Below, piece by piece: positions 6,140 through 62,456 of a stretch of DNA of 64,000 nt. Every line of letters starts with the position of its first letter. Positions within the stretch are counted from its first letter, which is position 1. Location of the stretch: positions 38,784 to 102,783 of the forward strand of contig CAYPWJ010000003.1 in NCBI GenBank assembly GCA_964414415.1. Direction: 5' to 3'. The notes beneath the pieces were generated by a model. The model was not told the DNA's origin and did not search any database. It was given only the letters and a program-made list of their open reading frames with translations. A program made the translations under genes and the position numbers. The stretch comes from an uncultured Thermoplasmatales archaeon (GTDB lineage: Archaea > Thermoplasmatota > E2 > UBA202 > DSCA01).

Positions 6140-6985
6140 ATGAAACACGCAGGCATTGGAATCGTTGCCGTCGGCGTGGCGCTGCTCATGCTGGCGGCCA
6201 TGCTCCCCGTGCAGCCCGCGTCTCCGCTTGCCGCCGCGCCGGGCGACAACACGCCGCCAAACCCGCCGGATATATCGGGACCCGGCGAGGGAAAGATATG
6301 GGAGGTCTACACCTACCAGTTCACGATTACCGACCCAGACGGCGACAAGATGGAACGCCTCGAAATCTATTTCGGCGACGACAAGGAGGAAATCCTGAAC
6401 TGCGGATGCACGCAGCCCTACTGGCCGTCGGGCACCACGATCAACGTCACCCATCGCTGGACCCAGCGCGGCGACTACACCATCAAGGCCAGGGTGCGCG
6501 ACGTCCTCGGCGAGTACAGCGACTGGGGCACGCTTCAGGTCTCCATGCCCAGGAAAGCCGCAGCGATCAACGGCCGCCCTGTATCTCCCGCGCCGGTGCA
6601 GACGGCGGCCGGGCTGAACGACACGACGCCGCCCAACGTCACCATCGTCAACCCTCGTGCGGGATACCTTCATATCGGGGGTAAACCCCTGATGGAGCTG
6701 CCGTCGTCCATGTCGACCCTGCTTCCCGGCTCGTTTCTATTCAGCAGGGGCAAGGCCCTGGTGACCGACAACGTCGACGCACCGGACGATCTACAGGTGA
6801 CGGTATATCTCGACGGCGAGCAGCGTGCGATCGCCGAATGGAGCCCCTGCAGCCGGTACCACGAATGGGGCGTCCTCGGGCGCCACGTGGGCCCAACGAC
6901 GCTCCGCGTTGCGGCAACGGACAGCAGCGGCAACGTCGGCAGCGCCGAGATGCCCGTCTGGTACGTCTGCCTCCTCCAGCAGTAG
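6140..6985 (+). CDS. Secreted protein: signal peptide, PKD-like domain and C-terminal Ig-like module
   Basis: Hydrophobic N-terminus (AVGVALLMLAAMLP), PKD-like YTY..TDPDGD...YFGD...HRW..G.YTIKARVRD, then the DTTPPNVTIVNPRAGYL module. Confidence 0.75.
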   Translation: MKHAGIGIVAVGVALLMLAAMLPVQPASPLAAAPGDNTPPNPPDISGPGEGKIWEVYTYQFTITDPDGDKMERLEIYFGDDKEEILNCGCTQPYWPSGTTINVTHRWTQRGDYTIKARVRDVLGEYSDWGTLQVSMPRKAAAINGRPVSPAPVQTAAGLNDTTPPNVTIVNPRAGYLHIGGKPLMELPSSMSTLLPGSFLFSRGKALVTDNVDAPDDLQVTVYLDGEQRAIAEWSPCSRYHEWGVLGRHVGPTTLRVAATDSSGNVGSAEMPVWYVCLLQQ

Positions 6986-39162: not shown

Positions 39163-40626
39163 CTACATCCAGGTGAACACCCACATGGCGGCCGCGCCGG
39201 CGTTGCCGGCAGCGTCGTATGCCTTCACCTCAAGCCGATGCAGGCCGAACCGGGCGTCCGACCATTTCTGCTCGAGCGATGGCCCGTCGGTCGAGGTCAC
39301 CAGCTCGCCGTCGCGGTAGTACTCGATCCTGTCGAGGCCGGAGAGCGCATCCGTCGCCGTGGCCTCAACGGTGACGGGACCGATGATGACGACGCCGAGC
39401 GGCATGTCACGGTGATCGCCGAAGAAGTACAGCTTTCCCCGTTCAGGCCGGGTGATGCTGACATCCGGCGCGCTGCCGTCGACGTAGACCGGGGTGCTGG
39501 AGGTTGCCTGTCGCCCATCGCCGTCGGTGACGGTGAGCTCAACCTCGTATGTTCCCTCCTCGTCGTAGGTGTGCGCTGGCGTCGCACCGGTCGCGGTGTC
39601 CCCGTCGTCGAAATCCCAGGAGTAGGAGACGACGGGGGCCACGAAACCGGTGCTTTTGCTGCCGTCAAACGCGACGGACCGACCGGCCTCCGTATAGTAC
39701 GGCCCGCCGGCTCTGGCAACGACCGGAGACGTGTCCACCGCGATGAGGAAATGCTCTATCTGGCAGTCTCCATAGGCAATCCGGAAGTATCCGTCCTCGC
39801 CCCAGCCGGCGCCCCAGCTGTTCTTGACAATCCAGTATCCCTCGTCCTCGCCACCCCAGCTGTCGTCGTAGCCCGTAATGACCACCTGATGGTTGATGTC
39901 CCTGGTCGGCTCCTCCCCGGGATGCTCATAGACGCCGCCGTCGTAGCCGCCGAAGTCGTCATAGACAGCCATCTCCGCCACCAGTGGCCCGTGCTCGACC
40001 AGCAGCGCCTTGACGTCCCTCCGGGCTGGATCGCTGTATCCGTCGTACTCGGTGACCGGATAGAGCGTGTCACGCCAGCCGTCGCATTTATCAGCGCAGG
40101 GGATACCATCGTCTGCACGGTAGGGGAAGCACTCCTCGGTGATGGCGCCGCCGTGACTGTGGAGATACCCGTAGGCCCACCAGGCGTTCCATCCGCTGCA
40201 GCCGCCGCTGGCCGGGGGACACGACAGCAGGTATTGCTCGGACAGGTCAACGTCGACATCAGGACTCCGCGCCTCGATGTTTACCATGGCCTCCAGTGCG
40301 CCGACGGCCGCGAAGCCCCAGCAGCTGCCGCAGCTGCCCTGCGACTTGGCGACGGTCATCCAGTTTCCACTCACGTTGCCCAGGGATGCATCCCGCCAGT
40401 CCCACGCCGGAGGTACCCCGCCGCCGGACACCGCGGGGCTCTCGCCGTTCACCTGGAGGTCGTATGTATCGATGGGGACACATCCATATCCGTGCCGTGA
40501 GGCGTCGCCGCTGTCGACGGAGGTGACGCTCGTCTCGCCCACACCCAGGTTGTGGACGGCGGGCACGAGAAACAGCACCGCCACCGTTATACACGCCAGG
40601 CTTTTCGAGAGATGGTTTCGCTGCAT
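39163..40626 (-). CDS. Secreted papain-like (C1) cysteine peptidase with PKD and C-terminal Ig-like module
   Basis: WDWR, QGSCGSCWGF, DLSEQYLLSC, NHQVVITGY, IVKNSWG; PKD FDGSKS..YSWDFDDG; shared C-terminal module. Confidence 0.9.
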   Translation of the reverse strand: MQRNHLSKSLACITVAVLFLVPAVHNLGVGETSVTSVDSGDASRHGYGCVPIDTYDLQVNGESPAVSGGGVPPAWDWRDASLGNVSGNWMTVAKSQGSCGSCWGFAAVGALEAMVNIEARSPDVDVDLSEQYLLSCPPASGGCSGWNAWWAYGYLHSHGGAITEECFPYRADDGIPCADKCDGWRDTLYPVTEYDGYSDPARRDVKALLVEHGPLVAEMAVYDDFGGYDGGVYEHPGEEPTRDINHQVVITGYDDSWGGEDEGYWIVKNSWGAGWGEDGYFRIAYGDCQIEHFLIAVDTSPVVARAGGPYYTEAGRSVAFDGSKSTGFVAPVVSYSWDFDDGDTATGATPAHTYDEEGTYEVELTVTDGDGRQATSSTPVYVDGSAPDVSITRPERGKLYFFGDHRDMPLGVVIIGPVTVEATATDALSGLDRIEYYRDGELVTSTDGPSLEQKWSDARFGLHRLEVKAYDAAGNAGAAAMWVFTWM

Positions 40627-40697
40627 TGGCCATGAACAACGGCAGGGGTATTTTAAATGCTTTTACTGCCCGGCTGGCAGCGTGGCATCTGCCTTTT

Positions 40698-40817
40698 TCA
40701 GGTGTTAGGTCCCTGGAGGATCTCCCGCCATTCCTCCCGGCAGAACGGACAGGTCACCTGGTTGACACCCTTGATTTTTTCGTAGTAGAAGACGCCGCGG
40801 CACTGCAGAATCGTCAT
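40698..40817 (-). CDS. Possible small Cys-containing protein or gene remnant (39 aa)
   Basis: MTILQCRGVFYYEKIKGVNQVTCPFCREEWREILQGPNT, with coding-like codons in an otherwise intergenic region. Confidence 0.3.
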   Translation of the reverse strand: MTILQCRGVFYYEKIKGVNQVTCPFCREEWREILQGPNT

Positions 40818-41054
40818 CTCGAGCTCGCCCTGGCCGTTGGCCCGTCTGGGGAACGTATAATTGCTGGACTTAAAATTTATTAAACTACCGCTATTAGGAT
40901 GCTGGGGCAGGCAAAAATCTGAAACTCTAACCGTGAGGTTTTATGTTTTGCAAGCTTGCCTCCGACATGCCTGCTCCTCCCTTATCCTCAAAATATACGG
41001 CGGCAGACAGCTTCAGCAGAGGGAAAGCGCACCAACTCCGTGAAGAGGAACATT

Positions 41055-41083
41055 AGAGAAAAAAAGAAGGGAAAAAGAGAGGG
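41055..41083 (-). terminator. Polypyrimidine tract after the 41084 gene; putative terminator
   Basis: agagaaaaaaagaagggaaaaagagaggg on +, directly after the stop on -. Confidence 0.45.
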
Positions 41084-42658
41084 CTACAGTCCAAGGACGA
41101 GTGGCCCGAGGATGAAGCCGCTCATGCTCTTGGTGGCACCGCCCGCCTCGATAGATATCGTAGTGGGTCCAACACCGACGACGAGGCCTGTGCTGATGTC
41201 CTTCGACTCGCCGGCCGGCAGCACATCGATGGTACCGGTCGTAGTGCCGCCCACGAATACGGGTCCGCTGAACTCGATGGACCAGTCCACGTTTTCCGCT
41301 GGAGCGCTGCCCGTGTTGGATACCGTTGCCTTCAGGCCAAATCCACCGGATACAGCAGGAATCTCGATGCTGGGTGCTGGCAGCACATCGTAATATATGT
41401 CCTTGTTGCCGTTGCGGTTGTCCGTCCAGATGATGCCACCCTGTGATATCTGGAGCGACGATGGCTCCTCGACCACGGTGCCGTCTTCGTCGTTGACCTG
41501 TTCAGGCTCCTCCCAGCTGGCGCCGCCGTCCGTTGACTTCGTGAGATAGAGGTTGCCGTCACGGATAAAGGAACAGTAGACGGTAGAGCCGCTCATAAAT
41601 ATGTCTGGATGCAGGTCGTCGGTCTGTGCCTCCGCGGGGAAGGATCCATCCTGCCATGTTTCTCCTTCATCGGAGGAATACTTGCAGGTGAGATCCCAGT
41701 CGCCATAGGTCGGGTTCTGCGACATGTATACCACGCATAGATGGCTGCCGCTGGCCCCGACAGCCGGGTCCTTGTAGGGGTCGCTGCCTTCCCACGTCTT
41801 GACAGGCCAAAGGGCCATGTCACTCTCTTTGTTTGGGTCGCCCCAGTGAATACCGATGCCGTGTGCACCTGAAGACTCGTTTTCGTAGTCCCAGACCTCC
41901 CAGAAGTGGTTCGATGTCGCCGCCATGTCAGCATTGTATGACAGCGGGAAATACTGGTCGCCTGTCCAATAGTATCCGGCCTCCTCCCATTTACCGAGCA
42001 TGAATCCTCCCTCGATTGCGCTTTGGAGGTTGTAGCCCGAGTATTCGACATGCCCGGTATATCCCCAGCCCCATGACGTCTCGCTCATGGCAGCCGCTGA
42101 AAGCGAGGAGCGCTCTGAGTCATATCCGCTCTGATCGAGATAGCCAGTCTGCCATGCCCCCGGGTCTGCAGGATCTGGGGCATAGAGGACATAGAATCGC
42201 TGTGCCGTCCGGTCGTTCCAGACGCCGTACATGACATCGCTGTCCGGCGGGGTGACCAGGGCCGGCCAGTTCTGCAGGTTGCTCGCCATATCGCCGGTGT
42301 CGGTGTTGTAGAGCTCGTTCCAGCTGCTTCCGTCGGTGGACCGCATGAAATAGATATGTCCCTCAAGGGCTCCGAGCTGCCGTTCCCAGGCTGCCACGTA
42401 GCTGCCGTCCGGCGCTTTCACTACGACCGGATGCCTATCGTCTTCCTCTGAGGAGGAAAGCTGGATGTCGCCGTTGCCTCCGGATGCGGCGGCTGTACGC
42501 TGTTCTGTCAGTTTAGTCGGGTCACTGGGGTGCTTGTCCACATTGGCGGTAAGCTCGTCGGGGGTATCTGTGCTGGAAAAAGACTGTGCTATTGGAACAC
42601 ACAGCATAGCACCAGCCACGACTGCTATAGCCATAATTTTGCTTGCTTTTACGCTCAT
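41084..42658 (-). CDS. Secreted BNR/Asp-box (sialidase-fold-like) protein with a CARDB-like C-terminus, paralog A
   Basis: Signal peptide; Asp-box-like motifs RSTDGSSW, YSSDEGETW, KSTDGGASW; ends SGFILGPLVLGL. Confidence 0.72.
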   Translation of the reverse strand: MSVKASKIMAIAVVAGAMLCVPIAQSFSSTDTPDELTANVDKHPSDPTKLTEQRTAAASGGNGDIQLSSSEEDDRHPVVVKAPDGSYVAAWERQLGALEGHIYFMRSTDGSSWNELYNTDTGDMASNLQNWPALVTPPDSDVMYGVWNDRTAQRFYVLYAPDPADPGAWQTGYLDQSGYDSERSSLSAAAMSETSWGWGYTGHVEYSGYNLQSAIEGGFMLGKWEEAGYYWTGDQYFPLSYNADMAATSNHFWEVWDYENESSGAHGIGIHWGDPNKESDMALWPVKTWEGSDPYKDPAVGASGSHLCVVYMSQNPTYGDWDLTCKYSSDEGETWQDGSFPAEAQTDDLHPDIFMSGSTVYCSFIRDGNLYLTKSTDGGASWEEPEQVNDEDGTVVEEPSSLQISQGGIIWTDNRNGNKDIYYDVLPAPSIEIPAVSGGFGLKATVSNTGSAPAENVDWSIEFSGPVFVGGTTTGTIDVLPAGESKDISTGLVVGVGPTTISIEAGGATKSMSGFILGPLVLGL

Positions 42659-43090
42659 TCTTCTGCCTCCAGGTATGTATCAAGCGCTGTCTTAAAAATG
42701 TATCGAATAAATATAAGAGTGAAAAGGCTCTATTTGGGGTGTCATGGCGGCCACCTGCCGCCCCGGGGCCTCTGGACGGTGACCACTGCCTAGTTCTCCC
42801 GATCGTTTCCCTGTCCAAAGAGATGGACCACCAACACCAGTTTAAATCTTTTATTTCAACAATTTTATCGGAGATCACCCGTCTCAAGATGAACCAAAAG
42901 AAATCACATACAGCGTCGCCATCCTCAAAGTCAAATAAATACTTGACATATACGGCTTCATCTCGAAACTATCGTAACTGGCATCGACCAGGCGAAAAAA
43001 CCTCCTTACGCTCTTCAAGCCAAGCGCTTTGGTTTGCCGGTATTGGAGGTATTACATGGTATATGGTTTTCGAGAGAGTCGAGAGAGCCG

Positions 43091-43127
43091 AAATTAAAAA
43101 AGAAGAGAGATAGAGAGGGAGAGATGG
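43091..43127 (-). terminator. Polypyrimidine tract after the 43128 gene; putative terminator
   Basis: Purine-rich aaattaaaaaagaagagagatagagagggagagatgg on +, after the stop on -. Confidence 0.4.
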
Positions 43128-44777
43128 CTATAGCCCGAGGACAAGCGGCCCAAGGATGAAGCCGCTTGCACTGCCGGTGGCGCCGCCTGCAGCGACCGAT
43201 ATCGTCGTTGGGCCGATGCCGACCGCGAGGCCGCTGCTAATGGATGTTGACTCACCTGCAGGCAGGCTGTCTATGGTGCCCTCCGCGTGGCTGCCGACGA
43301 AGACCGGGCCGGACAGGTCGATGGTCCACGCGACGTCGCTGGCAGCCTCTGTTCCTGTATTGCTGACGGTGGCAGTGGCGCCAACGCCGCCCGTGACACT
43401 TTCCACGTTGAGCTGCGGCGCCGGGACAGGTGCCCAATATATGTCGTTGTTGCCGTTGCGGTTGTCCGTCCAGACGATGCCGCTGCTGTGGATGTCGATG
43501 GTGTTTTCCCCGGATACAACGGTGCCGTCCTCCTCGTTTATCTGCGATGGCTCTGCCCAGGTTGCGCCGCCGTCAGTGGACTCCGTGAAGTAGAGGTTTC
43601 CATCTTTTTCGTAGGCCACGTAGACGGTGCTGCCGCTCATGTAGACCGCCGGGAAGCTCTCGTCCACCTGATGCTCATTGGCGACAAACGTGGTGTCCCA
43701 TGTTTCTCCGGCGTCCGACGTGTACTTGCAGCGGATGTCCCAGTCACCGTAGTTGTTGTCCGTGGTCATGTAGACGACAACTGCCCTGTCTCCCGATGCT
43801 TCAACGCTCGGGTGCGCTGCTTCATAGCCTGCCTCGTCTCCGCCATCCAGGAAGTAGGAGTTCTCGGCGTATTCGATGTCGCTCTCCTGGACCGGGATAC
43901 ATTTCTTGTAATATATCTGGGATTTTTCTTCAATATTAGACTGGCATACCACATAGAAGAATTCACCCTTGCTGTCCCAGCCAGGGTTATTGTCGTGGAC
44001 GGCAGCTGTCTCGATGTCCTGCGACGGCGTATACTGGCCTGCTGGACCTGTTCCGGAATCCCAGTTCCAGACGATTGAGCCAAGGTTTTCACCAGCGCCG
44101 CACCACCACAGCTCGAGGCCCTGGTTCATGCCCTCGTCGTCGTTGATCATCGCCGGGACGGGGCCGGGTCCATAATCGAAGCCCATGTTGTTGTACCACA
44201 TGTGGTCTTCGAAGTTGAGGCAGGTTGCCCCGGGCCGTCTGCCTTCTTCCCAGCTATATGCCTTCCAGGTTTCACTGTCGGTAATATCCGGGATCTGGGT
44301 AAAGTAGCCGCCCTGGTTCGTCCGCTCCAGGCATTCCAGCCACAGGCCTTCGTAATCAGGCCCTTCGTACCTGGTGGCGTCAAAGTAGGCCATGTCTCCA
44401 TACCAGGCGTAGCCGTCGAAGCCGAGCAGCGACGCGCTCCATGATTCACCGTCGTTGGAGGAGTAAGCCAACCCGATATCTGCGTTAAAAGCACTCTTTA
44501 CCTGCGTCCAGACGACGCCGGTGTTGCCGTCCCCGTCTTCAGTAATCCGGGGGATGGTGTCGTTTTTCGGGCTTTCCTTCGTCAGCAGGACATTTCCCTG
44601 TCCGCCAGCCGTCGACGTCTGCATCGGCGAGAGATCGAGCGATATACGCTCTGCATCGTCGAACTGCATCGACGACGCGTCTTCATTGTCATCGGCTGCC
44701 TGCATCACCGGCACCGCCGCCGCTCCCATCATCACCACCGCTATCGCTACACTCAGCATAATTTTTCTCGTTTGCAT
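43128..44777 (-). CDS. Secreted BNR/Asp-box protein with a CARDB-like C-terminus, paralog B
   Basis: Signal peptide; YSSNDGESW, YTSDAGETW, ESTDGGATW; ends SGFILGPLVLGL. A 33-bp DNA stretch (43449-43481) is 32/33 identical to 41405-41437. Confidence 0.72.
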   Translation of the reverse strand: MQTRKIMLSVAIAVVMMGAAAVPVMQAADDNEDASSMQFDDAERISLDLSPMQTSTAGGQGNVLLTKESPKNDTIPRITEDGDGNTGVVWTQVKSAFNADIGLAYSSNDGESWSASLLGFDGYAWYGDMAYFDATRYEGPDYEGLWLECLERTNQGGYFTQIPDITDSETWKAYSWEEGRRPGATCLNFEDHMWYNNMGFDYGPGPVPAMINDDEGMNQGLELWWCGAGENLGSIVWNWDSGTGPAGQYTPSQDIETAAVHDNNPGWDSKGEFFYVVCQSNIEEKSQIYYKKCIPVQESDIEYAENSYFLDGGDEAGYEAAHPSVEASGDRAVVVYMTTDNNYGDWDIRCKYTSDAGETWDTTFVANEHQVDESFPAVYMSGSTVYVAYEKDGNLYFTESTDGGATWAEPSQINEEDGTVVSGENTIDIHSSGIVWTDNRNGNNDIYWAPVPAPQLNVESVTGGVGATATVSNTGTEAASDVAWTIDLSGPVFVGSHAEGTIDSLPAGESTSISSGLAVGIGPTTISVAAGGATGSASGFILGPLVLGL

Positions 44778-44882
44778 GGTATCTTGCCTCCTTTTCGTAA
44801 TGAGGTATATGCTTAAATAGTTATTGATGATTTTTTTGCCGTCCGCATAGCGCGTATGTTAGCCCGTATTATAAAAGAAGAG

Positions 44883-44966
44883 CGCGGGGAGCGAGATTCG
44901 AACTCGCGAGGGCATACGCCCACAGGATTAGCAATCCTGCGCCGTACCAGGCTGGGCCATCCCCGC
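44883..44966 (-). tRNA. tRNA-Ser(GCT); CCA not encoded
   Basis: Reverse complement GCGGGGA-TG-GCCCAGCCTGGTACGGC-G-CAGGA-TTGCTAA-TCCTG-long variable arm-GCGAG-TTCGAAT-CTCGC-TCCCCGC-G. All stems pair; discriminator G. Confidence 0.95.
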
Positions 44967-45000
44967 AGCTGAGAATGGAATATGACGGCGGCATAAAAAG

Positions 45001-45924
45001 TTAGTGCCTGCCGCGTAGCCGGGGGAGCAGTGCAGCTGTCACTGCCTCTCGTGTCAGGTGTCTCCGCGTGACGGCGCCGTCGGAGAGGAAGCCGGCCAGG
45101 TTTTCCCCGTCCGGTGTCAGATCGCCGATGTCGGTGTCGTTGAGCTCCTCAGTCATCCCTGCCGGTATCTGGAACGCCGGACCGGTTCCACGGGTCATGT
45201 AGCCGGCGCTGTCGACCACTGTGCAGACGTGCTCCAGCATCGCCACCTGGTGCCGGTGTATGATGCCTGCCTCGATGCCGACGCCGTAGTCAGCGCTGTC
45301 GAGGCTCTGCTGTGCCCGGTGGAGTGCGCCCTTCCATATGTCTTCTCCTCTTGGGGTTTCCATGGTTTCTACGGGTGTGGCCGTGCAGTGGATGTCGAGA
45401 TGGCTGAGGAGATGATGGAATGCCTCGGCGGCTGCCGTTCGCTTGGTTTCGTTGGACGTTCCAATGGAGACCTCGAGCGGGATGGCTCGACGGCCGTCGG
45501 TTATCTCTCCCTGGCTGATGCGCGTGGAGCTGATGGGGATGCCGTCGTCCGCCAGCACGTATGGCACGACGATGATGCGGAGCGGCGGGATGTCGTTGCT
45601 GCGCCTGACCTCGTTTATCTTGTTTGCCACCGGCGCTGTCTCGGGGGAGACCACGATGGCGTCGCAGGCCCCGGTAGCTGCCGGTCCGTATTGGTCGTCG
45701 AGTCGTATGATCTGTGCCGCCTCTCCGTTGCAGCTGTCCTGGATGAAGCGATGGAGGCGCTCTTTCCGCTTCTCGTATGGCGGGACGTCTTTGCCGTGGC
45801 GGCTGGCGAGTTCGTCGCTGGTCAGGCCGATGATGACCCGGTCGCCGACGTGGAAGGCTCTGCGGAGCAATGCCTCGTGTCCGGCGTGGATGATGCTGAA
45901 CGTCCCGCCCAGGCAGACCTGCAT
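45001..45924 (-). CDS. coaD: Bifunctional phosphopantetheine adenylyltransferase / inosine-xanthosine triphosphatase (YjjX/DUF84)
   Basis: LGGTFSIIHAGH (HxGH), AIVVSPET, ISSTRI; C-terminal IGTSNETK...KGALHRA...GVGIEAGI. Confidence 0.87.
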   Translation of the reverse strand: MQVCLGGTFSIIHAGHEALLRRAFHVGDRVIIGLTSDELASRHGKDVPPYEKRKERLHRFIQDSCNGEAAQIIRLDDQYGPAATGACDAIVVSPETAPVANKINEVRRSNDIPPLRIIVVPYVLADDGIPISSTRISQGEITDGRRAIPLEVSIGTSNETKRTAAAEAFHHLLSHLDIHCTATPVETMETPRGEDIWKGALHRAQQSLDSADYGVGIEAGIIHRHQVAMLEHVCTVVDSAGYMTRGTGPAFQIPAGMTEELNDTDIGDLTPDGENLAGFLSDGAVTRRHLTREAVTAALLPRLRGRH

Positions 45925-45997
45925 AGACGTGCAACGCCTCCCTGTTTTTTATTGTTGTGCCGGAAAAGATTAAAAATCGCTGGCTGATGTACATGCG

Positions 45998-47542
45998 ATG
46001 AAAAAGCTGGTTGCTGTCGCTGTTTTTCTTTTCGTCGCTGCAACGGTGGTCCCCGCCGTTGGTTTCTACGGGGAGGGAGAGACATCGTCGCCGGTTCAGC
46101 TCGACGTTGCAACCGATACGGCTGCGCGCCCGGTCCGCATTCATTTTCCCACGGATACGCTGCCGGACGGCGAGGCAGCGGTCGTGGTCCCCGGCCCGGC
46201 GATGCCCGTCATCGTGCCACAGGGTCGTTCCTTCGTGGCGAGCGTCCGGCTTGACGGGACGCCGTCGGGCTGGACGTGCAGCCTTGCAACGGCCTACGAT
46301 GCTGTGGTGACGGAGCAAAAGATCACGGTGAAGGATACGACGTTCAACGATTCCACCGGCTGCTGGGACGTCGAGATGCAGGTGTCATCCTCGCTCCCGC
46401 CCGACCTCTATAATCTCACCGTCGAGGTGGAATGCCAGGGCGAGATATACCGGCTGTCGGCCCCGCGGTCTGTATCCGTCGTCAGCGGGTACAGGCAGCG
46501 GTTCTCCTTCGTCCATCTCACTGATTTCCACATCGGCGACCCGCGTGGCTTCAAAGAAAACATCCGGCGGACGCTCGGCTGGAAGGCAGCGAAGAAAAGC
46601 GTCAGGGAGATAAACCTCATGCATCCCGACTTCGTGGTCATCACCGGCGACCTCGTGTTCGGGCAGCTTTACCCGTTCGAGTATGGCTTTGAATACCGGA
46701 CCTGCTACGACATCCTCCAGCGGTTCGACGTGCCGACCTACCTGGTGCCGGGCAACCACGACGGCTACATCCAGACCGGACAGGACGGCCTCGCGTGCTG
46801 GCGGCGCACCTTCGGCCCGCTGTATTACTCGTTCGACTACGGCGACAGTCACTTTGTCGGGGTGAACTCCTACGATTGGCCCAGCAGGAGCCGCCATGCC
46901 ATCTCCTACGTCGCGTTCAACTGGGGCGGCCACGTACAGGGGGAGCAGCTGTCATGGATAGAAGACGACCTCGCCCGGCATGGTGATGCCTGGAATGCGA
47001 TGCTGCTGCATCACAACCCGCTCTGGGAGACCGAAAATGACTCGCTGCTCGGCAACGGCTACCAGGGTCGCCGTGAGCTGCTGTCGCTCATCGAGCAGCA
47101 CGGCGTCGATGCCTGCTTCGCCGGCCACGTCCACTCCGACGACGTCACCATCCGCAACGACACCACCTATATTACCACGACGACGGTGTCCAGCGGCACC
47201 AGCGGCGATGCATACTGGGGGTACCGAGTGGTAGCGATGGACAACGCCTCGCTGGCTGATTTCAACTACACTGTTGACCATCAATCGATTCCGCTCTACC
47301 GTCTCAACTATAGCTACAGCACGAACGACGGGTCAACCCGGACGGTCGAAGCACGCGTGGAAAACGACCTCGCCGTGCCGATAGATGCATACCTCCGGTT
47401 CTACGTCCCTGCAGGCAGCTACACCGCCGAGAACGGCGGCATCGTCAGGCAGCGCAGCGACGGCGACACGATGCATCTCGTCGTTCAGGCAGATGTTGCC
47501 CCCTTGACCACGGAAACCGTGACAGTCCACCCGCCTAGCTAG
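45998..47542 (+). CDS. Secreted calcineurin-like metallophosphoesterase
   Basis: Signal peptide; HLTDFH, ITGDL, PGNHD, HH, AGHVH motifs. Confidence 0.85.
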   Translation: MKKLVAVAVFLFVAATVVPAVGFYGEGETSSPVQLDVATDTAARPVRIHFPTDTLPDGEAAVVVPGPAMPVIVPQGRSFVASVRLDGTPSGWTCSLATAYDAVVTEQKITVKDTTFNDSTGCWDVEMQVSSSLPPDLYNLTVEVECQGEIYRLSAPRSVSVVSGYRQRFSFVHLTDFHIGDPRGFKENIRRTLGWKAAKKSVREINLMHPDFVVITGDLVFGQLYPFEYGFEYRTCYDILQRFDVPTYLVPGNHDGYIQTGQDGLACWRRTFGPLYYSFDYGDSHFVGVNSYDWPSRSRHAISYVAFNWGGHVQGEQLSWIEDDLARHGDAWNAMLLHHNPLWETENDSLLGNGYQGRRELLSLIEQHGVDACFAGHVHSDDVTIRNDTTYITTTTVSSGTSGDAYWGYRVVAMDNASLADFNYTVDHQSIPLYRLNYSYSTNDGSTRTVEARVENDLAVPIDAYLRFYVPAGSYTAENGGIVRQRSDGDTMHLVVQADVAPLTTETVTVHPPS

Positions 47543-56186: not shown

Positions 56187-56868
56187 ACGAGCGCTGACGG
56201 CGTTGCGCGACGGCGACTTCGTCCTCATCTACGACGCGAAGGGACGGGAGGAGGAAACCGATTTTATCGTCGCTGCCGAGCACGTCACCCCCGAGCACGT
56301 CTACCGGATGCGGCGTGACGGCGGCGGCCTCATCTTTCTGATGCTGCATCACGACATAGCGGCGAAGCTCGGGCTGCCGTTCCTGGCCGATGTCCTCGCC
56401 ATGGGAGCCGACCGGTGGCCGGCGCTGGCGGCGCTCTCCCCGGACGACATCCCCTATGACACGAAGTCGTCGTTCTCGGTTCCGGTCAACCACCGGGAGA
56501 CGTTCACTGGCATCACCGACAATGACAGGGCGCTGACCATCAGCGAGATGGCGACGCTGGCCGCCGACGTTGCCGGCATGGACGAGGGCGAGGCACGAGG
56601 GGTGTTCGGCGAGCGGTTCAGGGCACCCGGGCACGTGGCGGTGTGCCGCGCCGCCGCCGGGCTGCTCATGGAGCGACGCGGCCACACGGAGCTGTCCGTC
56701 GCGCTTGGAGAGATGGCCGACGTTGTCCCGGTCATGGCGGGCTGCGAGATGATGGACCGCGGGGAGGCGCTGTCCAAGACGGACGCGATGGCGTACGCCG
56801 ACGAGCACGGCATGGTGTTCCTGGAGGGACAGGACATCGTGGAGGCATGGGAACAATGGTACGAGTGA
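56164..56868 (+). CDS. ribB: 3,4-dihydroxy-2-butanone 4-phosphate synthase
   Basis: YDAKGREEETD, RDGGGLI, NHRETFTGITDNDRALT, FRAPGHV, RRGHTE, CEMMD. Confidence 0.92.
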   Translation: MRSSPKLERALTALRDGDFVLIYDAKGREEETDFIVAAEHVTPEHVYRMRRDGGGLIFLMLHHDIAAKLGLPFLADVLAMGADRWPALAALSPDDIPYDTKSSFSVPVNHRETFTGITDNDRALTISEMATLAADVAGMDEGEARGVFGERFRAPGHVAVCRAAAGLLMERRGHTELSVALGEMADVVPVMAGCEMMDRGEALSKTDAMAYADEHGMVFLEGQDIVEAWEQWYE

Positions 56869-57302
56869 TGGCATCAGGCGTCTTCGATCTGCTGCACATC
56901 GGCCATCTCCATTATCTGCGGGAGGCCCGCAGCATGGGCGACGAGCTCGTCGTCGTCATCGCCACGGACGAGACAGTTCGGGAGCGGAAGCACTCGCCGA
57001 TTATGCCTGCAGCGATGCGCCGCGAGCTGGTGGCGGCGTTGAAGCCGGTCGACCTTGCCGTCGTCGGGCACCCCGATGACCCGTTCCGCGTCGTCGAGCG
57101 ACTGCAGCCCGGCGTCATCGCGCTGGGCTACGACCAGGAGGTCGAGGGCCTCAAGCGGGAGCTCCGGGAGCGCGGCATCAATGTCGAGGTGCGCCGGTGC
57201 ACCCGCTACCAGGAATACGACCTCAACGGCACACGCAAGATCATCGGCCGCATCGAGGAGAAACTCGAAAAGAACGAGCTCTACCTGGGCGACGAGAAAT
57301 AG
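56856..57302 (+). CDS. ribL: Archaeal FAD synthase
   Basis: MVRVMASGVFDLLHIGHLHYL (HxGH), VIALGYDQ; position in the rib cluster. Confidence 0.87.
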   Translation: MVRVMASGVFDLLHIGHLHYLREARSMGDELVVVIATDETVRERKHSPIMPAAMRRELVAALKPVDLAVVGHPDDPFRVVERLQPGVIALGYDQEVEGLKRELRERGINVEVRRCTRYQEYDLNGTRKIIGRIEEKLEKNELYLGDEK

Positions 57303-57331
57303 CCCGTTTTGCACCCTGTTTTTTTTTTCCA

Positions 57332-57442
57332 GTGGCGCTCTGCCGCGACCGCCTTCGACACGTTTAAAAACAGAGATATCCTTTGATTGCTGGCGAGCAA
57401 CACAGAGAGGGAATAAAAAAATATAATGTGGCAGAGCGCCAC
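57332..57442. repeat. 13-bp perfect inverted repeat pair flanking an 85-bp AT-rich segment
   Basis: gtggcgctctgcc (57332-57344) is the reverse complement of ggcagagcgccac (57430-57442). Confidence 0.75.
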
Positions 57443-57482
57443 ATCAGACACCTGCCTGACAGGCAGATGAGGCTCGCCTAGT
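57428..57482 (+). repeat. Degenerate partial copy of the adjacent tRNA-like sequence
   Basis: Shares gtggcagagcg, cctgcc and gctcgcctagt with 57525-57577, in the same order and at near-identical spacing. Confidence 0.65.
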
Positions 57483-57518
57483 GTATCAACATCTACGCCG
57501 TACGTTTTGAAACACGCT

Positions 57519-57600
57519 GCAGGGGTGGCAGAGCGGCTGAACGCGCCTGCCCGAGGAGTAGGTGGCGCTCGCCTAGTCCCTCGAGGGTTCAAATCCCCCC
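57519..57600 (+). pseudogene. Decayed tRNA-Leu(GAG)-like sequence lacking the 3' acceptor strand
   Basis: GCAGGGG-TG-D arm GCAGAGCGGCTGAACGC-CCTGC/GTAGG anticodon stem with a CCGAGGA loop-long variable arm-GAGGG TTCAAAT CCCCC. The expected CCCCTGC is replaced by CGTAACG. Confidence 0.7.
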
Positions 57601-57685
57601 GTAACGAGCCACCTGTTTTTTGATGCCATCGAATCAGGGCGAGACGAAACCACATCACTTATGTAGCGAAAATGTATAGCTTGAT

Positions 57686-60600
57686 GTGGCCGAGCTAGAT
57701 TCGACGCGGGATGCAGGCGAGTACATGCAGGGTGAGCTTTTCTCGGAGCATTATATAGCAGACAGACTGCGGGACAGCCAGCGGTTCATCGACATGACTG
57801 GCAAGGCGGACGAGGCCTTCCGCATCGTCAGCCACATCTATGAACAGAAAAAAGACATCCTGGAGCGTCTCGACGAACACTCGCTGGAGGACGACTTCCT
57901 GAAACCGGTGCTCGCGGCGCTGGAGCACGTCACCGACGTCCAGCCGCCGTATCTTTCACATAAAGGGATGGAGGACATCCCCGACTATGCGTTGTTCAAC
58001 GACGAGGGAGAGAAACAGACAGCGCAGCGCAAGAAAGACGTCGACAGCGACACCTATTTCGACGTCTCCATCGGGCTGATAGAGGCAAAGCGATGGGATA
58101 AAAACCTCGACAGGGGACGCAGGCGGACGCCGTCGGTCCAGATAAAACGCTACCTGCGGATGACAACCGTGAAATGGGGCATCCTGACCAACGGCAGGAA
58201 ATGGCGGCTGTACTGCAAGGAGAGCCCGTTTTCCTCCAACGTGTTCCTCGAGTTCGACCTTCAGCGGATGCTGGAGCACGACAGGGCAGCGATGTTTCGG
58301 CTGTTCTATGCGTTCTTTTCACACGACGCCTTCAGACGTGTCGACGGCCGGTCGTTCCTCGACGCCGTCTATGAGAAAAACATCCGGTTCGCCCGGGAGG
58401 TCGAGGACGACCTGGAGCGGAACGTCTATGAGGCGCTGCGCGTCCTCGTCGAGGGGTTCCTGCGCTTTGAGCCCAACGGGCTCGACAGGGGCGACGTGGA
58501 GGACATCCACGACAGCTGCCTCATCCTGCTCTACCGGCTGCTGTTTCTGTTCTATGCGGAGTCGAAGGACCTCATCCAGTTTTCGTCTCATTACCGGAAG
58601 TATTCACTCATCCATCTGAGCGAGAAAATCGCTGCGGACATGGATGAATACGCGCCGCTCGTCGACGACTACTGGCAGACGCTGCAGCGGACGTTCGCCA
58701 TCATCAACCGCGGCAGCGAAGAAGTGGTCGGTGAGGCAGGGATTCCGCCCTACAACGGCGGGTTGTTCGACCCAGACCGGCATCCGTTCCTGGAGCGGTA
58801 CAGCATCAGCGACAACTACCTCAAGATGGCGGTAGAGCTGCTCGCCAGGCGGCAGACGGACACCGGCCGTCAATGGGTGGACTACAAGACCCTGCAGATC
58901 CGGCATCTCGGCTCCATCTACGAGAAGCTGCTGGAGTACAAGGTCCGGGTGGCGGAGACCGACCTCGCGGTGGACGACGGCGAGTACCATGCAGCCGAGG
59001 AGGACGAAGACGCCGTGGTCGAGGAGGGCGAGCTCTACCTGGTAACTGACAAGGGCGAGCGGAAGGCCACCGGCAGCTACTATACGCCGGACTACGTCGT
59101 CGAGTACATCGTCGAAAACACGGTCGGTGAGCTCATCGACGAGCGGACCGGGCAGGCTCGCCAAGACGGTGAAAGCGAGGCGGACGCCATCCTTGATATC
59201 ACGGTGCTCGACCCGGCGATGGGCAGCGGCCATTTCCTGGTCGGCGCGGTCGAGTACATGGCCGACGAGCTCGTCGAGGCGGTCAACCGCGACATCGAAA
59301 ACGAGGTATGGGACGAGGGCGACAGAGACCACGACTGGGCGAAACGCGCCGTCGTCAGCCACTGCATATACGGCGTCGACGTGAACCCGCTGGCGGTCGA
59401 GCTGGCGAAGCTCTCGCTGTGGCTCACCACGCTCAGCAAGGGCAAACCGTTGAGCTTCCTCGACCACCGATTGAAATGCGGCAACAGCCTGATAGGCGAA
59501 CGCCTGGAGGACCTGCCGGTGCTGCCGGGCGACGAACGCACGCAGGATAGAAAGATCCACACGCCGTTCATCGACAAGCTGGCGGACCAGGCAGCCGAGA
59601 TAGAGGACATCCCCGACGACTCACTCTCAGACATCAAGCGAAAAGAACAGCTCTACCGGCAGCTGAGGGACTCCGACGCCTACAAACGCATCAAGACACT
59701 GGCTGATGCACGCACCGCGATATATTTCGGCGTCGGCGACGACCACCCCGAGCTGAAGGACCGGTACAAGAACCTCGCCTGGGAGGCCCTGATGGGTGAC
59801 GCGTCGAAATGGGAGGACAAAAGCAGGGCGAGCTGGGTGAGGGAGGGCCGTGAGATGGCGCGTCGGCAGCGGTTCTTCCACTGGGAACTCGAGTTCCCCG
59901 ATGTCTTCTTCGGCGACGGAGAAACCGGCGATAACCGGAAGACAGACAGCAACAGCACCGGCGGCTTCGACGCCGTCATCGGCAACCCGCCATACGTCCG
60001 GCAGGAACAGCTCGGGAAGAACAAGGAATATCTCAGCGAGAGTTATTCCTCCTATCACGGAATGGCTGACCTTTACGTTTATTTCTTTGAGAAGGGACAT
60101 GAGCTGCTCAAAAGAAACGGGTTGTTTGGATATATTTCTTCAAATAAATTCATTCAGGCTGGATATGGCAAAAATCTTCGCTCGTTTTTGACCAACGGTA
60201 TTTTTGTTAAAGAAATCGTTGACTTCGGCGAGCTTCCTGTTTTCCCAGAGGCGGCCACTTTTCCGGCCATTTTCATAACAGAAAAATCTGGTAGAGAGGA
60301 GAGACCTACCACTTATACAAAGGTAAAATCCTTAGATTTCGTATCCCTTGAACAATTAGTTGATGATGCGTCTGATTCCTTGTTGCCTTCATGTTTCCAG
60401 GGAGATACATGGAACCTTGTTTCTGAACGCGAAATTAGAATCGTACAAAAAATGGACAGAAAAGGTGTTCCACTGGAGCAGTATGTCGACGGAAACATTG
60501 AATATGGCATTAAGACTGGATTAAATGATGTATTCGTTATCGACAGAACTCTAAAGGATGACATAGTTTCGAGAGACCCGGCAAGCTCAGAAATCATAAA

Positions 60601-61903
60601 ACCTGCCCTAGCTGGCGACGATATCAGAAGGTATAAAATTAACTTCCGCGACAGATACGTTATTTTCACTCGTAGAGGAATAGACCTCGAAAAATATCCT
60701 GGGGTTAAAGAGTATTTGAATCAATACAAAGAATCTCTAATACCAAAGCCGGAAGGGTGGGATGACAAACACGATGGAGAATGGAAAGGCCGTAAACCAG
60801 GAAGTTATGAGTGGTACGAAATTCAGGACACAGTAGATTACTATGAAGCATTTGAAAAACCAAAGATAGTCTTTCCAGATATTGCCATGAATTCTAGATT
60901 TGCCTTTGACAATGATAAAAGATACGTCCTCAACACAGGGTATGTTATCCCTGTTGATGATTTCTTCTTGCTGGCCATACTCAATTCCACGCTAATCGAG
61001 AGCTGGTATCGGCATAATTCCGCGGTGCTCGGCGATGCAGACATGGGCGGAAGAATGCGTTTTATTTACCAATACGTCTCAAAAATCCCGATAAAGGAAA
61101 TCAGTTATGACACTCCTGAGCCAGAAAGAAAAAAGTTGACTAAGGATGCACAAGACCATTACCGAGACTACCTAACGAATGACGACACGGAGATATTCGA
61201 GCTCATCGATGCGCTACTACCGCAAGCAGACAGAGAACAAAAAAGCGACGTCGCCAAAGAGTTACTAGCCTCTCTTGCCCGAAAGATGACAGAATATAAG
61301 CAGCAGAGAGACAACCTCAACCTCAACGTGCTCGACTATCTCGGCAACTACGTCTCCGGTAACAAGTTATCCGAGCTGTCTACACCGCCGCAGGGCCTCT
61401 CCTCAACCATACTCGTCAAGACAGCCACCGAGCTAGACAACCTTCGCATCGGATCCATATCGTTCGATAGAAATGGGAAGAAACTCGTACTGTATGCGAC
61501 AGCACGATACAAGCCAGAAAATCCAGATAAACATGACACCGACAGGTGGGGCTACACCGAAACCGAGACCATACCGGCGATGGAATTCCTCGACCTAACA
61601 GAGACAGAAAAAGCACTCGTGGAAGCATTCGTGCCGCTCGCCATAGAAAAAAGCGGCGGATTTGCAGGTTTCCGCGAAAACGCCACAAAGACAAAGTCAC
61701 TCATCGACCGACTCGGAGACCTCACACTGCCGAAGCTAGACGACGTCGAAAGCAGCTTCAAAAAATATCTGAAAATCAAAGGCCGCGCAGACGAACTCGA
61801 CAAAAAAATCAGGAAAACCGACGAGCTCATCGACCATATTGTCTACCGGCTCTACGGTCTCACCGACGAAGAGATAGACATCATCGAAAAAAGCCTCGAC
61901 TAA
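57686..61903 (+). CDS. Type IIG/IIL-like fused restriction endonuclease and N6-adenine methyltransferase (Eco57I-like)
   Basis: N-terminal PD-(D/E)xK (IPDYAL...IEAK), WGILTNG, GSYYTP, LDPAMGSGHFL (motif I), IYGVD.NPLAVELAKLSLWL, GNPPY (motif IV), TaqI_C-like TRD. Confidence 0.88.
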   Translation: MAELDSTRDAGEYMQGELFSEHYIADRLRDSQRFIDMTGKADEAFRIVSHIYEQKKDILERLDEHSLEDDFLKPVLAALEHVTDVQPPYLSHKGMEDIPDYALFNDEGEKQTAQRKKDVDSDTYFDVSIGLIEAKRWDKNLDRGRRRTPSVQIKRYLRMTTVKWGILTNGRKWRLYCKESPFSSNVFLEFDLQRMLEHDRAAMFRLFYAFFSHDAFRRVDGRSFLDAVYEKNIRFAREVEDDLERNVYEALRVLVEGFLRFEPNGLDRGDVEDIHDSCLILLYRLLFLFYAESKDLIQFSSHYRKYSLIHLSEKIAADMDEYAPLVDDYWQTLQRTFAIINRGSEEVVGEAGIPPYNGGLFDPDRHPFLERYSISDNYLKMAVELLARRQTDTGRQWVDYKTLQIRHLGSIYEKLLEYKVRVAETDLAVDDGEYHAAEEDEDAVVEEGELYLVTDKGERKATGSYYTPDYVVEYIVENTVGELIDERTGQARQDGESEADAILDITVLDPAMGSGHFLVGAVEYMADELVEAVNRDIENEVWDEGDRDHDWAKRAVVSHCIYGVDVNPLAVELAKLSLWLTTLSKGKPLSFLDHRLKCGNSLIGERLEDLPVLPGDERTQDRKIHTPFIDKLADQAAEIEDIPDDSLSDIKRKEQLYRQLRDSDAYKRIKTLADARTAIYFGVGDDHPELKDRYKNLAWEALMGDASKWEDKSRASWVREGREMARRQRFFHWELEFPDVFFGDGETGDNRKTDSNSTGGFDAVIGNPPYVRQEQLGKNKEYLSESYSSYHGMADLYVYFFEKGHELLKRNGLFGYISSNKFIQAGYGKNLRSFLTNGIFVKEIVDFGELPVFPEAATFPAIFITEKSGREERPTTYTKVKSLDFVSLEQLVDDASDSLLPSCFQGDTWNLVSEREIRIVQKMDRKGVPLEQYVDGNIEYGIKTGLNDVFVIDRTLKDDIVSRDPASSEIIKPALAGDDIRRYKINFRDRYVIFTRRGIDLEKYPGVKEYLNQYKESLIPKPEGWDDKHDGEWKGRKPGSYEWYEIQDTVDYYEAFEKPKIVFPDIAMNSRFAFDNDKRYVLNTGYVIPVDDFFLLAILNSTLIESWYRHNSAVLGDADMGGRMRFIYQYVSKIPIKEISYDTPEPERKKLTKDAQDHYRDYLTNDDTEIFELIDALLPQADREQKSDVAKELLASLARKMTEYKQQRDNLNLNVLDYLGNYVSGNKLSELSTPPQGLSSTILVKTATELDNLRIGSISFDRNGKKLVLYATARYKPENPDKHDTDRWGYTETETIPAMEFLDLTETEKALVEAFVPLAIEKSGGFAGFRENATKTKSLIDRLGDLTLPKLDDVESSFKKYLKIKGRADELDKKIRKTDELIDHIVYRLYGLTDEEIDIIEKSLD

Positions 61904-61997
61904 CAACAGGACAACGCTGCACCGGGCGTTTTTTCCTCCCCCTCCCCTATCGGCGTAAACGCTAAAAGGACACCAGGGTTTATGGAGGACGAGACAG

Positions 61998-62456
61998 ATG
62001 AAGCACATCGGCATCGCGGATACCACGTTCGCCCGGTATGACATGGCAGCCGCGGCGATCGACGAGCTCAAAAGCAACGCCACTGGCTTCAAGATAGAGC
62101 GGTACACCGTCCCCGGCGTCAAGGATCTGCCATGCGCCGCACGGCGGCTCATCGACCGTGGCTGCGACATCATAATGGCGCTGGCGATGCCCGGGCCCGC
62201 CGACATCGACCGGCAGTGCGCCCACGAGGCCTCGCAGGGGCTCATCCAGCTGCAGGTGCAGACGGGTGTCCACATTGTCGAGGTCTTCGTCCACGAGAGC
62301 GAGGCCGACGACGACGCGGAGCTCCGATGGCTGGCGGAGCAGCGCAGCCGCGACCACGCGGTCAACGTCGTCAACCTGCTGTATCACCCCGAGCGGCTGC
62401 AGCGGCAGGCCGGCACCGGGCAGCGCGAAGGCTACGAAGACGCCGAGCCGCTGTAA
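61998..62456 (+). CDS. ribC: Archaeal-type riboflavin synthase
   Basis: IGIADTTFARYDM, TVPGVKDLP, CAHEAS.GL, IVEVFVHESE, LRQG-like tail (GQREGYED). Confidence 0.9.
   Translation: MKHIGIADTTFARYDMAAAAIDELKSNATGFKIERYTVPGVKDLPCAARRLIDRGCDIIMALAMPGPADIDRQCAHEASQGLIQLQVQTGVHIVEVFVHESEADDDAELRWLAEQRSRDHAVNVVNLLYHPERLQRQAGTGQREGYEDAEPL

Follow-up and report, generated by a model that had tools for sequence, protein, structure and literature searches.

Partial tRNA genes in archaea usually originate from the integration of mobile elements, after which the two ends of the element are marked by direct repeats of approximately 44 bp, one in a complete and the other in a partial copy of the tRNA gene (PMC9897764). 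Here, two tRNA-like units standing in tandem upstream of a type IIG restriction-modification (R-M) gene were analysed in a 64,000-nucleotide (nt) stretch from an uncultured Thermoplasmatales archaeon (GCA_964414415.1, contig CAYPWJ010000003.1), referred to as the window; all coordinates are positions in this 64-kb window, and both units (unit 1, 57428-57482; unit 2, 57519-57600) lie on its plus strand. As with the partial tRNA genes of Thermococcaceae (PMC9897764), detection scores are below threshold, the cloverleaf is incomplete, horizontally acquired DNA lies alongside and the sequence could be mistaken for a tRNA gene. The Thermococcaceae cases, however, are terminal fragments that repeat approximately 44 bp of a complete tRNA across an element of 9-23 kb (PMC9897764), whereas this locus has neither an integrase nor a partner repeat, its two copies stand in tandem and only a small internal segment has been deleted. 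The explanation that best accounts for the data, to which we assign a probability of roughly 0.6, is that unit 2 is an eroding tRNA pseudogene and unit 1 an older duplicate within a block that has been held constant and most likely specifies a small RNA.

Ordinary tRNA pseudogenes resemble unit 2 in having recognisable arms, damage at position 33 (C33), in the acceptor and in the T stem, and an unconstrained rate of change, but they are not accompanied by a second, partial and conserved copy. To our knowledge, decayed duplicate tRNA genes have rarely been reported from the compact genomes of archaea. Small RNAs linked to tRNA sequence include the tRNA-like element located 5' of haloarchaeal 5S rRNA, which is cut by tRNase Z, and C/D box small RNAs produced from tRNA introns or co-transcripts. 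The likeness to such tRNA-derived RNAs is that tRNA sequence is reused beyond decoding, and the block around unit 1 may be co-transcribed with the tRNA-like unit; unit 1 differs from them in having no acceptor/T-arm minihelix for RNase P or RNase Z and no C/D or H/ACA boxes (by eye), and in being known from sequence alone. The neighbouring gene is of the same kind as the Eco57I/MmeI type IIG enzymes, a single polypeptide with Eco57I, N6_Mtase, MmeI_Mtase and TaqI_C domains (Pfam), but homologues elsewhere stand without the units, and we know of no tRNA-like or small-RNA partner for enzymes of this kind. The locus is best filed as an ordinary tRNA pseudogene together with a tRNA-derived fragment that may be exapted.

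Unit 2 begins with an acceptor 5' strand, GCAGGGG, followed by TG. Its D arm, GCAGAGCGGCTGAACGC, reads GCAG-AGCGGCTGAA-CGC with A12 facing C23 and is followed by G; the anticodon arm, CCTGC-CCGAGGA-GTAGG, carries the anticodon GAG at 57553-57555, C at position 33 and one G.U pair in the stem; the variable region is 20 nt long; and the T arm, GAGGG-TTCAAAT-CCCCC, contains one A.C mismatch and a T loop, GGGTTCAAATCCC, that is unique in the window. The T stem is followed by CGTAACG, which is unable to pair with GCAGGGG, so that no 7-bp acceptor stem is formed, the 3' acceptor strand is deleted and there is no position 73 at which an A73 discriminator could stand. An earlier note on this DNA, made from its letters, had described unit 2 as a near-complete type II tRNA with a GAG anticodon, C33, mismatches in the D and T stems and no 3' acceptor strand, all of which is read directly from the sequence. 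It had also stated that a GCAG stem strand is lost from unit 2; GTAGG does stand in its place, but the stem itself is unbroken, GTAGG pairing with CCTGC by way of the G.U pair. The scoring with tRNA finders that it had proposed gave no call by ARAGORN, for which a tRNA-Ser(GCT) at 44882-44966 was the sole tRNA in the window, and 17 bits with the Rfam tRNA model RF00005 (57519-57603, E = 0.84, threshold 29). Predicted folds of the window form of unit 2 were no better than those of shuffled sequences (z = -0.96 and -0.80).

Unit 1 is an incomplete and remodelled class II tRNA copy in which the 5' part of the D arm is followed by the anticodon arm and the start of the variable arm. Three of its blocks recur in the same order in unit 2, as had been noticed earlier, and two of them are exact 11-mers confined to this site in 64 kb: GTGGCAGAGCG is present in two exact copies, at 57428 and 57525, and GCTCGCCTAGT likewise, at 57472 and 57567, with start-to-start distances of 44 nt in unit 1 and 42 nt in unit 2. 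Between 57451-57482 and 57546-57577, 24 of 32 positions are identical. Because two exact 11-mers recur in order within approximately 100 nt, the repeat is far beyond chance. A third 'GTGGCCGAGC', at 57684, is gone in the sister lineage described below and is probably a chance occurrence. An Rfam scan of unit 1 alone gave no match.

A sister lineage of the same gene order co-occurs with the window lineage in the same sediment runs and in runs of a second study (X1, X3 and X6). It differs from the window at 117 of 803 positions in ribL (14.6%), the gene upstream of the units, and at 82 of 495 positions in the R-M gene, or by about 15% overall. Sister unit 2 was reconstructed from complete difference lists, with counts that agree (20 substitutions and 8 gap letters), its 3' part was checked by the loose-end consensus TCCTCCGCGTAATGAGCCACCTGTTTTTTT in X1 and X3, and its cloverleaf was assessed manually and by folding in RNAfold. 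The reconstructed sequence, GCGGGGGTGGCAGAGCGGTCAAACGCGCCTGCTTGAGGGGCAGGTGGCGCTCGCCTAGTCCCTCGCAGGTTCAAATCCCCTCCTCCGCG, is followed by TAATGAGCCACCTG and a run of eight T, the counterpart of a terminator of six T after unit 2 in the window (57616-57621, plus strand). It has a full 7-bp acceptor stem (GCGGGGG/CCTCCGC, with one G.U pair), the loop TTGAGGG, with U33, and a perfect anticodon stem (CCTGC/GCAGG). At the site corresponding to 57598-57600 on the plus strand the sister reads CCCC-T-C-CTCCG-CG, giving the 3' acceptor strand CCTCCGC, and the window sequence is 6 nt shorter there. As the two lineages have homologous trailers beyond unit 2 (CGTAA(C/T)GAGCCACCTG and the T run), the window form has lost its acceptor strand by a 6-nt deletion in a C/T run, and the site is not an integrase crossover or other recombination junction.

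Between the two lineages, unit 2 carries 10 substitutions in 82 nt (12%) in addition to the 6-nt indel, a rate to be compared with that of the ribL coding sequence given above and with 12-25% in the intergenic flanks. The tRNA-Ser(GCT) gene at 44882-44966 was used as a control: 0 differences were found over the 62 nt of the gene covered by a sister contig, the flank beyond 44966 is 15-19% different, and on the opposite side, at the 3' end of the gene, the match of a further contig breaks off exactly at 44881. Because it changes as fast as coding sequence, unlike the invariant tRNA-Ser, unit 2 is classed as a decaying tRNA pseudogene that appears to be free of tRNA-type constraint. Both marks of a pseudogene are found in it, namely tRNA homology in every arm, with conserved positions damaged, and substitution at approximately the background rate.

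With unit 1 as outgroup, the lesions can be placed on branches. In its loop, CTGACAG, and its strand, GCAG, unit 1 is like the sister lineage, whose unit 2 it matches at 26 of the 32 positions compared above, so that U33 to C, G38 to A and C40 to T would have arisen on the window branch; the T-stem changes are probably to be placed on the sister branch, because a real Thermoplasmatota tRNA-Leu has GAGGG at this place. The descent of both units from one ancestor, put forward in the earlier note, is borne out by the same states, in that the U33 and GCAG strand of unit 1 are also present in sister unit 2 and were lost from window unit 2. The common ancestor of both lineages would have carried, inside the inserted segment described below, a complete class II tRNA gene with a GAG anticodon, and unit 1 would be an older partial duplicate of the tRNA that gave unit 2. 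In the window lineage, slippage in the C/T run would then have deleted 6 nt and with them the 3' acceptor strand, and the changes U33 to C and G38 to A would have been acquired; in the sister lineage it is the T stem that would have been damaged, on its 5' strand, erosion taking a different course in each.

Unit 1 is contained in a 100-nt block (57393-57492, plus strand) that is a candidate small RNA or regulatory element. Comparison of the lineages along this region gave an unalignable segment at 57304-57352, 5 differences in 40 positions at 57353-57392, 0 differences in 100 (X3) or 1 in 100 (X6) in the block, and 35 substitutions and 19 gap letters in 248 positions at 57493-57740. In X3 the block is present on one shared contig at a depth of 9.93, the sum for both lineages, and contig depth indicates a single copy per genome. 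The flanks of the block are 12-25% different between lineages, and its pattern of conservation resembles that of the tRNA-Ser control. Because this block is invariant between the sister lineages, unit 1 and not the tRNA-like unit 2 is most likely the part still in use. A co-opted tRNA-mimic RNA, as suggested earlier for these units, is thus a possibility for unit 1, whose block is invariant, like tRNA-Ser, at about 15% divergence elsewhere, but the suggestion fails for unit 2.

The predicted fold of the block has z scores of -3.33 on the plus strand and -3.37 on the minus strand, and none of 200 shuffled sequences folded as stably. A closing stem (GCGAGC, 57393-57398, with GCTCGC, 57473-57478) is predicted to enclose two plus-strand hairpins: hairpin 1, the palindrome ATGTGGC-AGAGC-GCCACAT (57426-57444), and hairpin 2, the perfect palindrome CTGCCTG-A-CAGGCAG (57452-57466), which is the counterpart of the anticodon arm and keeps U33 in the loop CUGACAG. 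The sole substitution in the block, C57445T (X6), lets positions 57425 and 57445, an A x C mismatch next to hairpin 1 in the window, pair and so extends the stem to 9 bp (pairing judged by eye). Hairpin 1 together with a run of seven T scores as terminator-like on the minus strand, and the plus strand of the block has no internal T run. A TATA-like sequence, TTTAAAAA (57363-57370, plus strand), with its centre approximately 26 nt upstream of 57393, is a putative promoter of the block, and a run of four T (57505-57508, plus strand), kept in the sister lineage, is a possible weak terminator of an RNA starting near 57393. These sequence features fit a plus-strand RNA of approximately 110 nt. The block would act as a structured small RNA of approximately 100-115 nt that starts at about 57393 behind the TATA-like box, folds into the two hairpins and ends near the run of four T, or, alternatively, as a palindromic regulatory site; a small structured RNA is most likely, its transcription and the strand concerned being putative. 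No Rfam family matched the block, and a covariance model of it, run over the window and 87 loci, matched only the block itself. A 14-codon open reading frame (ORF; 57426-57470, MWQSATSDTCLTGR) lies fully inside the block; a coding role is not favoured for it, because the one substitution in the block would turn Ser7 into Leu.

Several points weigh against the reading of unit 2 as an eroding pseudogene and of unit 1 as part of a retained small RNA. The fold of the block scores equally well on both strands, the limits used for folding were taken from the conservation data, and the TATA-like box is altered to TCTAAAAA in the sister lineage. Sister unit 2 is not a clean tRNA, as its T stem (GCAGG/CCCCT) is worse than that of the window, A12 x C23 is common to both lineages and the discriminator is G73; the sister contigs are of low depth (3-5x), with the T arm resting on two of them. 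The functional tRNA ancestor is reconstructed and not seen, and the genome's own tRNA-Leu(GAG) was not located. Finally, only two lineages were compared, and a single recombination tract could give an identity of 100 nt. On that last account both units would be junk, and the identity would record recent recombination or gene conversion between co-occurring lineages; we consider this unlikely. It draws on the presence of both lineages in the same samples (X1, X3 and X6), on the restriction of the comparison to two lineages and on the position of the tract, which borders a mobile R-M module with other mosaic signs. However, the adjoining 800 nt of ribL hold no other common stretch of at least 31 nt, the start of the tract coincides precisely with the 5' strand of the predicted closing stem, the only substitution, which comes from the samples of another study, makes a base pair, and the tRNA-Ser control shows the same pattern.

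The R-M gene itself (57725-61903, plus strand; the gene caller placed its start at GTG 57686) encodes a fused nuclease, methylase and specificity domain in a product of 1392-1405 amino acids, the best relatives of which are 45-58% identical. Its head (57646-57778, plus strand) comprises a promoter-like region, the inverted repeat CCACATCA/TGATGTGG and the first 18 or so codons. A 5448-nt X4/X5 contig from brine and seawater metagenomes and a second X3 sediment contig have only this segment in common with the window, at approximately 95% identity (7 differences); both contigs have different upstream sequence and no units, and the brine/seawater coding sequence is far more diverged past 57778. 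The head thus looks like a separately conserved or recombining module, and because it occurs elsewhere behind other upstream sequence, the tRNA-derived block and the R-M module are taken to be separable, with their junction at 57646. The linkage of the units to the defence gene that had been proposed earlier finds no support in this occurrence of the R-M head without them. R-M homologues at 80 loci in GTDB species genomes, with a best identity of 44%, stand without the units and in most cases without an upstream tRNA, and the contexts of the three best R-M protein matches are unrelated to this locus. The C-terminal part of the R-M gene (60000-62000) has a guanine-cytosine (GC) content of 45%, compared with approximately 61% elsewhere, and its best homologues match only the first 58% or so of the protein; the drop in GC and the limited reach of the homology suggest that the specificity domain was swapped.

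One trait is shared by the block and the R-M head. The 9-mer TGATGTGGC/GCCACATCA occurs in four copies (two exact, two matching at 8 of 9 positions) in 57424-57446 and 57649-57690, one inverted pair forming hairpin 1 and a second bracketing the R-M promoter-like region; in the sister lineage the copy at the promoter has changed, which makes the motif only a lead. It could be a common operator half-site. That the block is a lineage-specific small RNA or palindromic operator, derived from a class II tRNA fragment and controlling the R-M gene, for instance through this 9-mer, is a tentative and rather doubtful proposal.

Could unit 2 instead be a working, non-canonical tRNA-like RNA, such as a processing signal for RNase P or RNase Z, or a decoy, tied to the R-M gene? 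It has been kept beside that gene in both lineages, several of its segments are unchanged between them (57522-57536, 57560-57583 and 57586-57598) and the sister form has a stable fold (-48.7 kcal/mol, z = -3.76). That fold, however, is a long hairpin and not a cloverleaf, and the window form does not rise above shuffles. Substitution at a coding-like rate, set against the unchanged 62 nt of tRNA-Ser, speaks against function in the same way as do the lesions, which differ by lineage and fall at defining positions (acceptor strand, U33 and T stem), and the R-M head module is found elsewhere without unit 2. We therefore regard a working unit 2 as decidedly improbable and retain its reading as a pseudogene.

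Unit 2 is best described as a class II tRNA pseudogene with a GAG anticodon, the label 'Leu' being derived from the anticodon alone. Its D arm is identical at 24 of 25 positions to that of a real tRNA-Ser(CGA), a type found in phage and bacterial tRNA-Ser genes, and G73 and the GCGGGG start of the sister form match the genome's own tRNA-Ser; the GCAGGGG acceptor and the T arm match a Thermoplasmatota tRNA-Leu. The A73 discriminator is an identity element for archaeal leucyl-tRNA synthetase. Searches for the pattern of the units or for a matching real tRNA gave 0 matches to the 28-nt exact D-arm/anticodon stretch in GTDB species genomes, 0 to the three-block pattern in GTDB species genomes, JGI metagenomes and IMG/VR, 0 real tRNA-Leu(GAG) with the same anticodon arm in GTDB and 0 sequences combining the same D arm with a GAG anticodon in JGI metagenomes, and blastn against phages and plasmids returned nothing meaningful. 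A split or intron-containing archaeal tRNA was rejected as an explanation of unit 2, as, on reading by eye, the predicted folds contain no 3-4-3 bulge-helix-bulge and no CCCCTGC stands nearby as a partner strand. The segment 57506-57644 scored 23.5 bits with the Rfam model of sX4 (RF02223, gathering score 70), a small RNA of Xanthomonas, which belongs to a different domain of life and with which the similarity is local only; membership in this family was rejected because the score is too low and the similarity arises from a tRNA-Ser-like stretch inside the sX4 model.

Both units lie in DNA that is missing from related genomes. On the left, ribL (56856-57302, plus strand), encoding an archaeal FAD synthase (CTP_transf_like), was identified from its translation and from Pfam PF01467 on an identical NCBI contig, and its protein has 82% amino acid identity with those of three Thermoplasmatales metagenome-assembled genomes (MAGs; L001-L003); its terminator, a run of ten T at 57319-57328 (plus strand), is the last part that can be aligned with these MAGs. 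On the right, ribC (riboflavin synthase, DMRL_synthase; 61998-62456, plus strand) has a promoter region that aligns with relatives from approximately 61948. The gap from ribL to ribC is 90-270 bp in L001, L002 and L003, compared with 4.7 kb in the window. Because ribC follows ribL directly in these MAGs but not in the window, approximately 57330-61945 is an insertion of about 4.6 kb, containing the two tRNA-like units and one gene, that for the type IIG R-M enzyme.

Such a setting invites the reading that the units are attachment-site (att) remnants of successive integrations into a tRNA-Leu gene, with the R-M gene as cargo of the last element; scars of successive integrations had also been proposed in the earlier note. 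The block does stand at the left edge of an insertion absent from relatives, a few distant R-M homologues adjoin tRNA genes (L089, L092 and L111), and integration-derived partial tRNA genes are common in archaea (PMC9897764). Against this, the R-M gene is the sole gene between ribL and ribC and no integrase is encoded there, no tRNA-derived repeat is present near 61903-61997 or elsewhere in the window, and related genomes have no tRNA gene at the ribL-ribC site. Unit 1 derives from the interior of the tRNA, with its spacing altered, and is not a contiguous, terminal and exact repeat, the units are 95 nt apart with nothing between them, the R-M head starts at 57646, apart from the units, and unit 2 lacks only 6 nt, lost by deletion within homologous sequence and not by crossover. 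In sum, three of the four marks of an att site (end repeats, integrase and terminal fragment) are absent, and the fourth, flanked DNA that is absent from related genomes, is present. Successive integration scars are accordingly very unlikely, and a decayed duplicate within acquired DNA remains the preferred description. A search for a target-site duplication at the ends of the insertion found a vague likeness of T-run terminators and nothing more.

Other features of the insertion site and its surroundings were recorded. The ribL-ribC spacer of L002, a related Thermoplasmatota MAG, has its own insert of approximately 180 bp (6445-6640) carrying the hairpin GTGGCGGTAAAACCAC, which makes this spacer look like a hot spot for insertions. 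At the left edge of the window insertion, a 13-nt perfect inverted repeat (57332-57344, GTGGCGCTCTGCC; 57430-57442, GGCAGAGCGCCAC) surrounds an A/T-rich stretch of 85 nt; miniature-transposon ends were discarded as an explanation of it, as 6 of the 13 left-arm positions are changed in the sister lineage. A minus-strand ORF of 125 amino acids (57281-57658) is of low complexity and was set aside as spurious. Further upstream, GC content is lowered to 0.56-0.59 over 40000-46000, around the genuine tRNA-Ser(GCT), and this region may be another island beside a tRNA gene.

An independent NCBI contig (CAJOVT010000829.1, GCA_905333795.1) is identical to the window over 57290-57740, and contigs of runs X1 and X2 (depths 22 and 10) are identical to the window form. 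Because three independent assemblies agree exactly, assembly error is excluded and the window form is real sequence. It had been argued earlier that an intact tRNA in the reads would mean an assembly error; a more intact form is indeed present, but in a separate, co-occurring lineage, and does not carry that meaning. Chance resemblance or an artefact, to which the sub-threshold Rfam score and the missing ARAGORN call might point, has next to no probability in view of the three identical assemblies, the two exact 11-mer repeats in conserved order and the recognisability of every tRNA arm, including a D arm that is almost that of a real tRNA-Ser.

For annotation, the locus is a case of tRNA-like sequence beside acquired DNA that would be neither a gene nor an integration scar, and the sister lineage shows how the gene broke. 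Should the conserved block be no more than a recombination tract, there would be nothing unusual about the locus. If the block is transcribed, a tRNA fragment would have found a new use in front of a defence gene, as a small RNA or control site, and would offer a handle on the regulation of archaeal single-gene type IIG R-M systems, which is poorly known; should control of the R-M gene by the block prove true, this would be a documented tRNA fragment exapted as a regulator of a defence gene in archaea.

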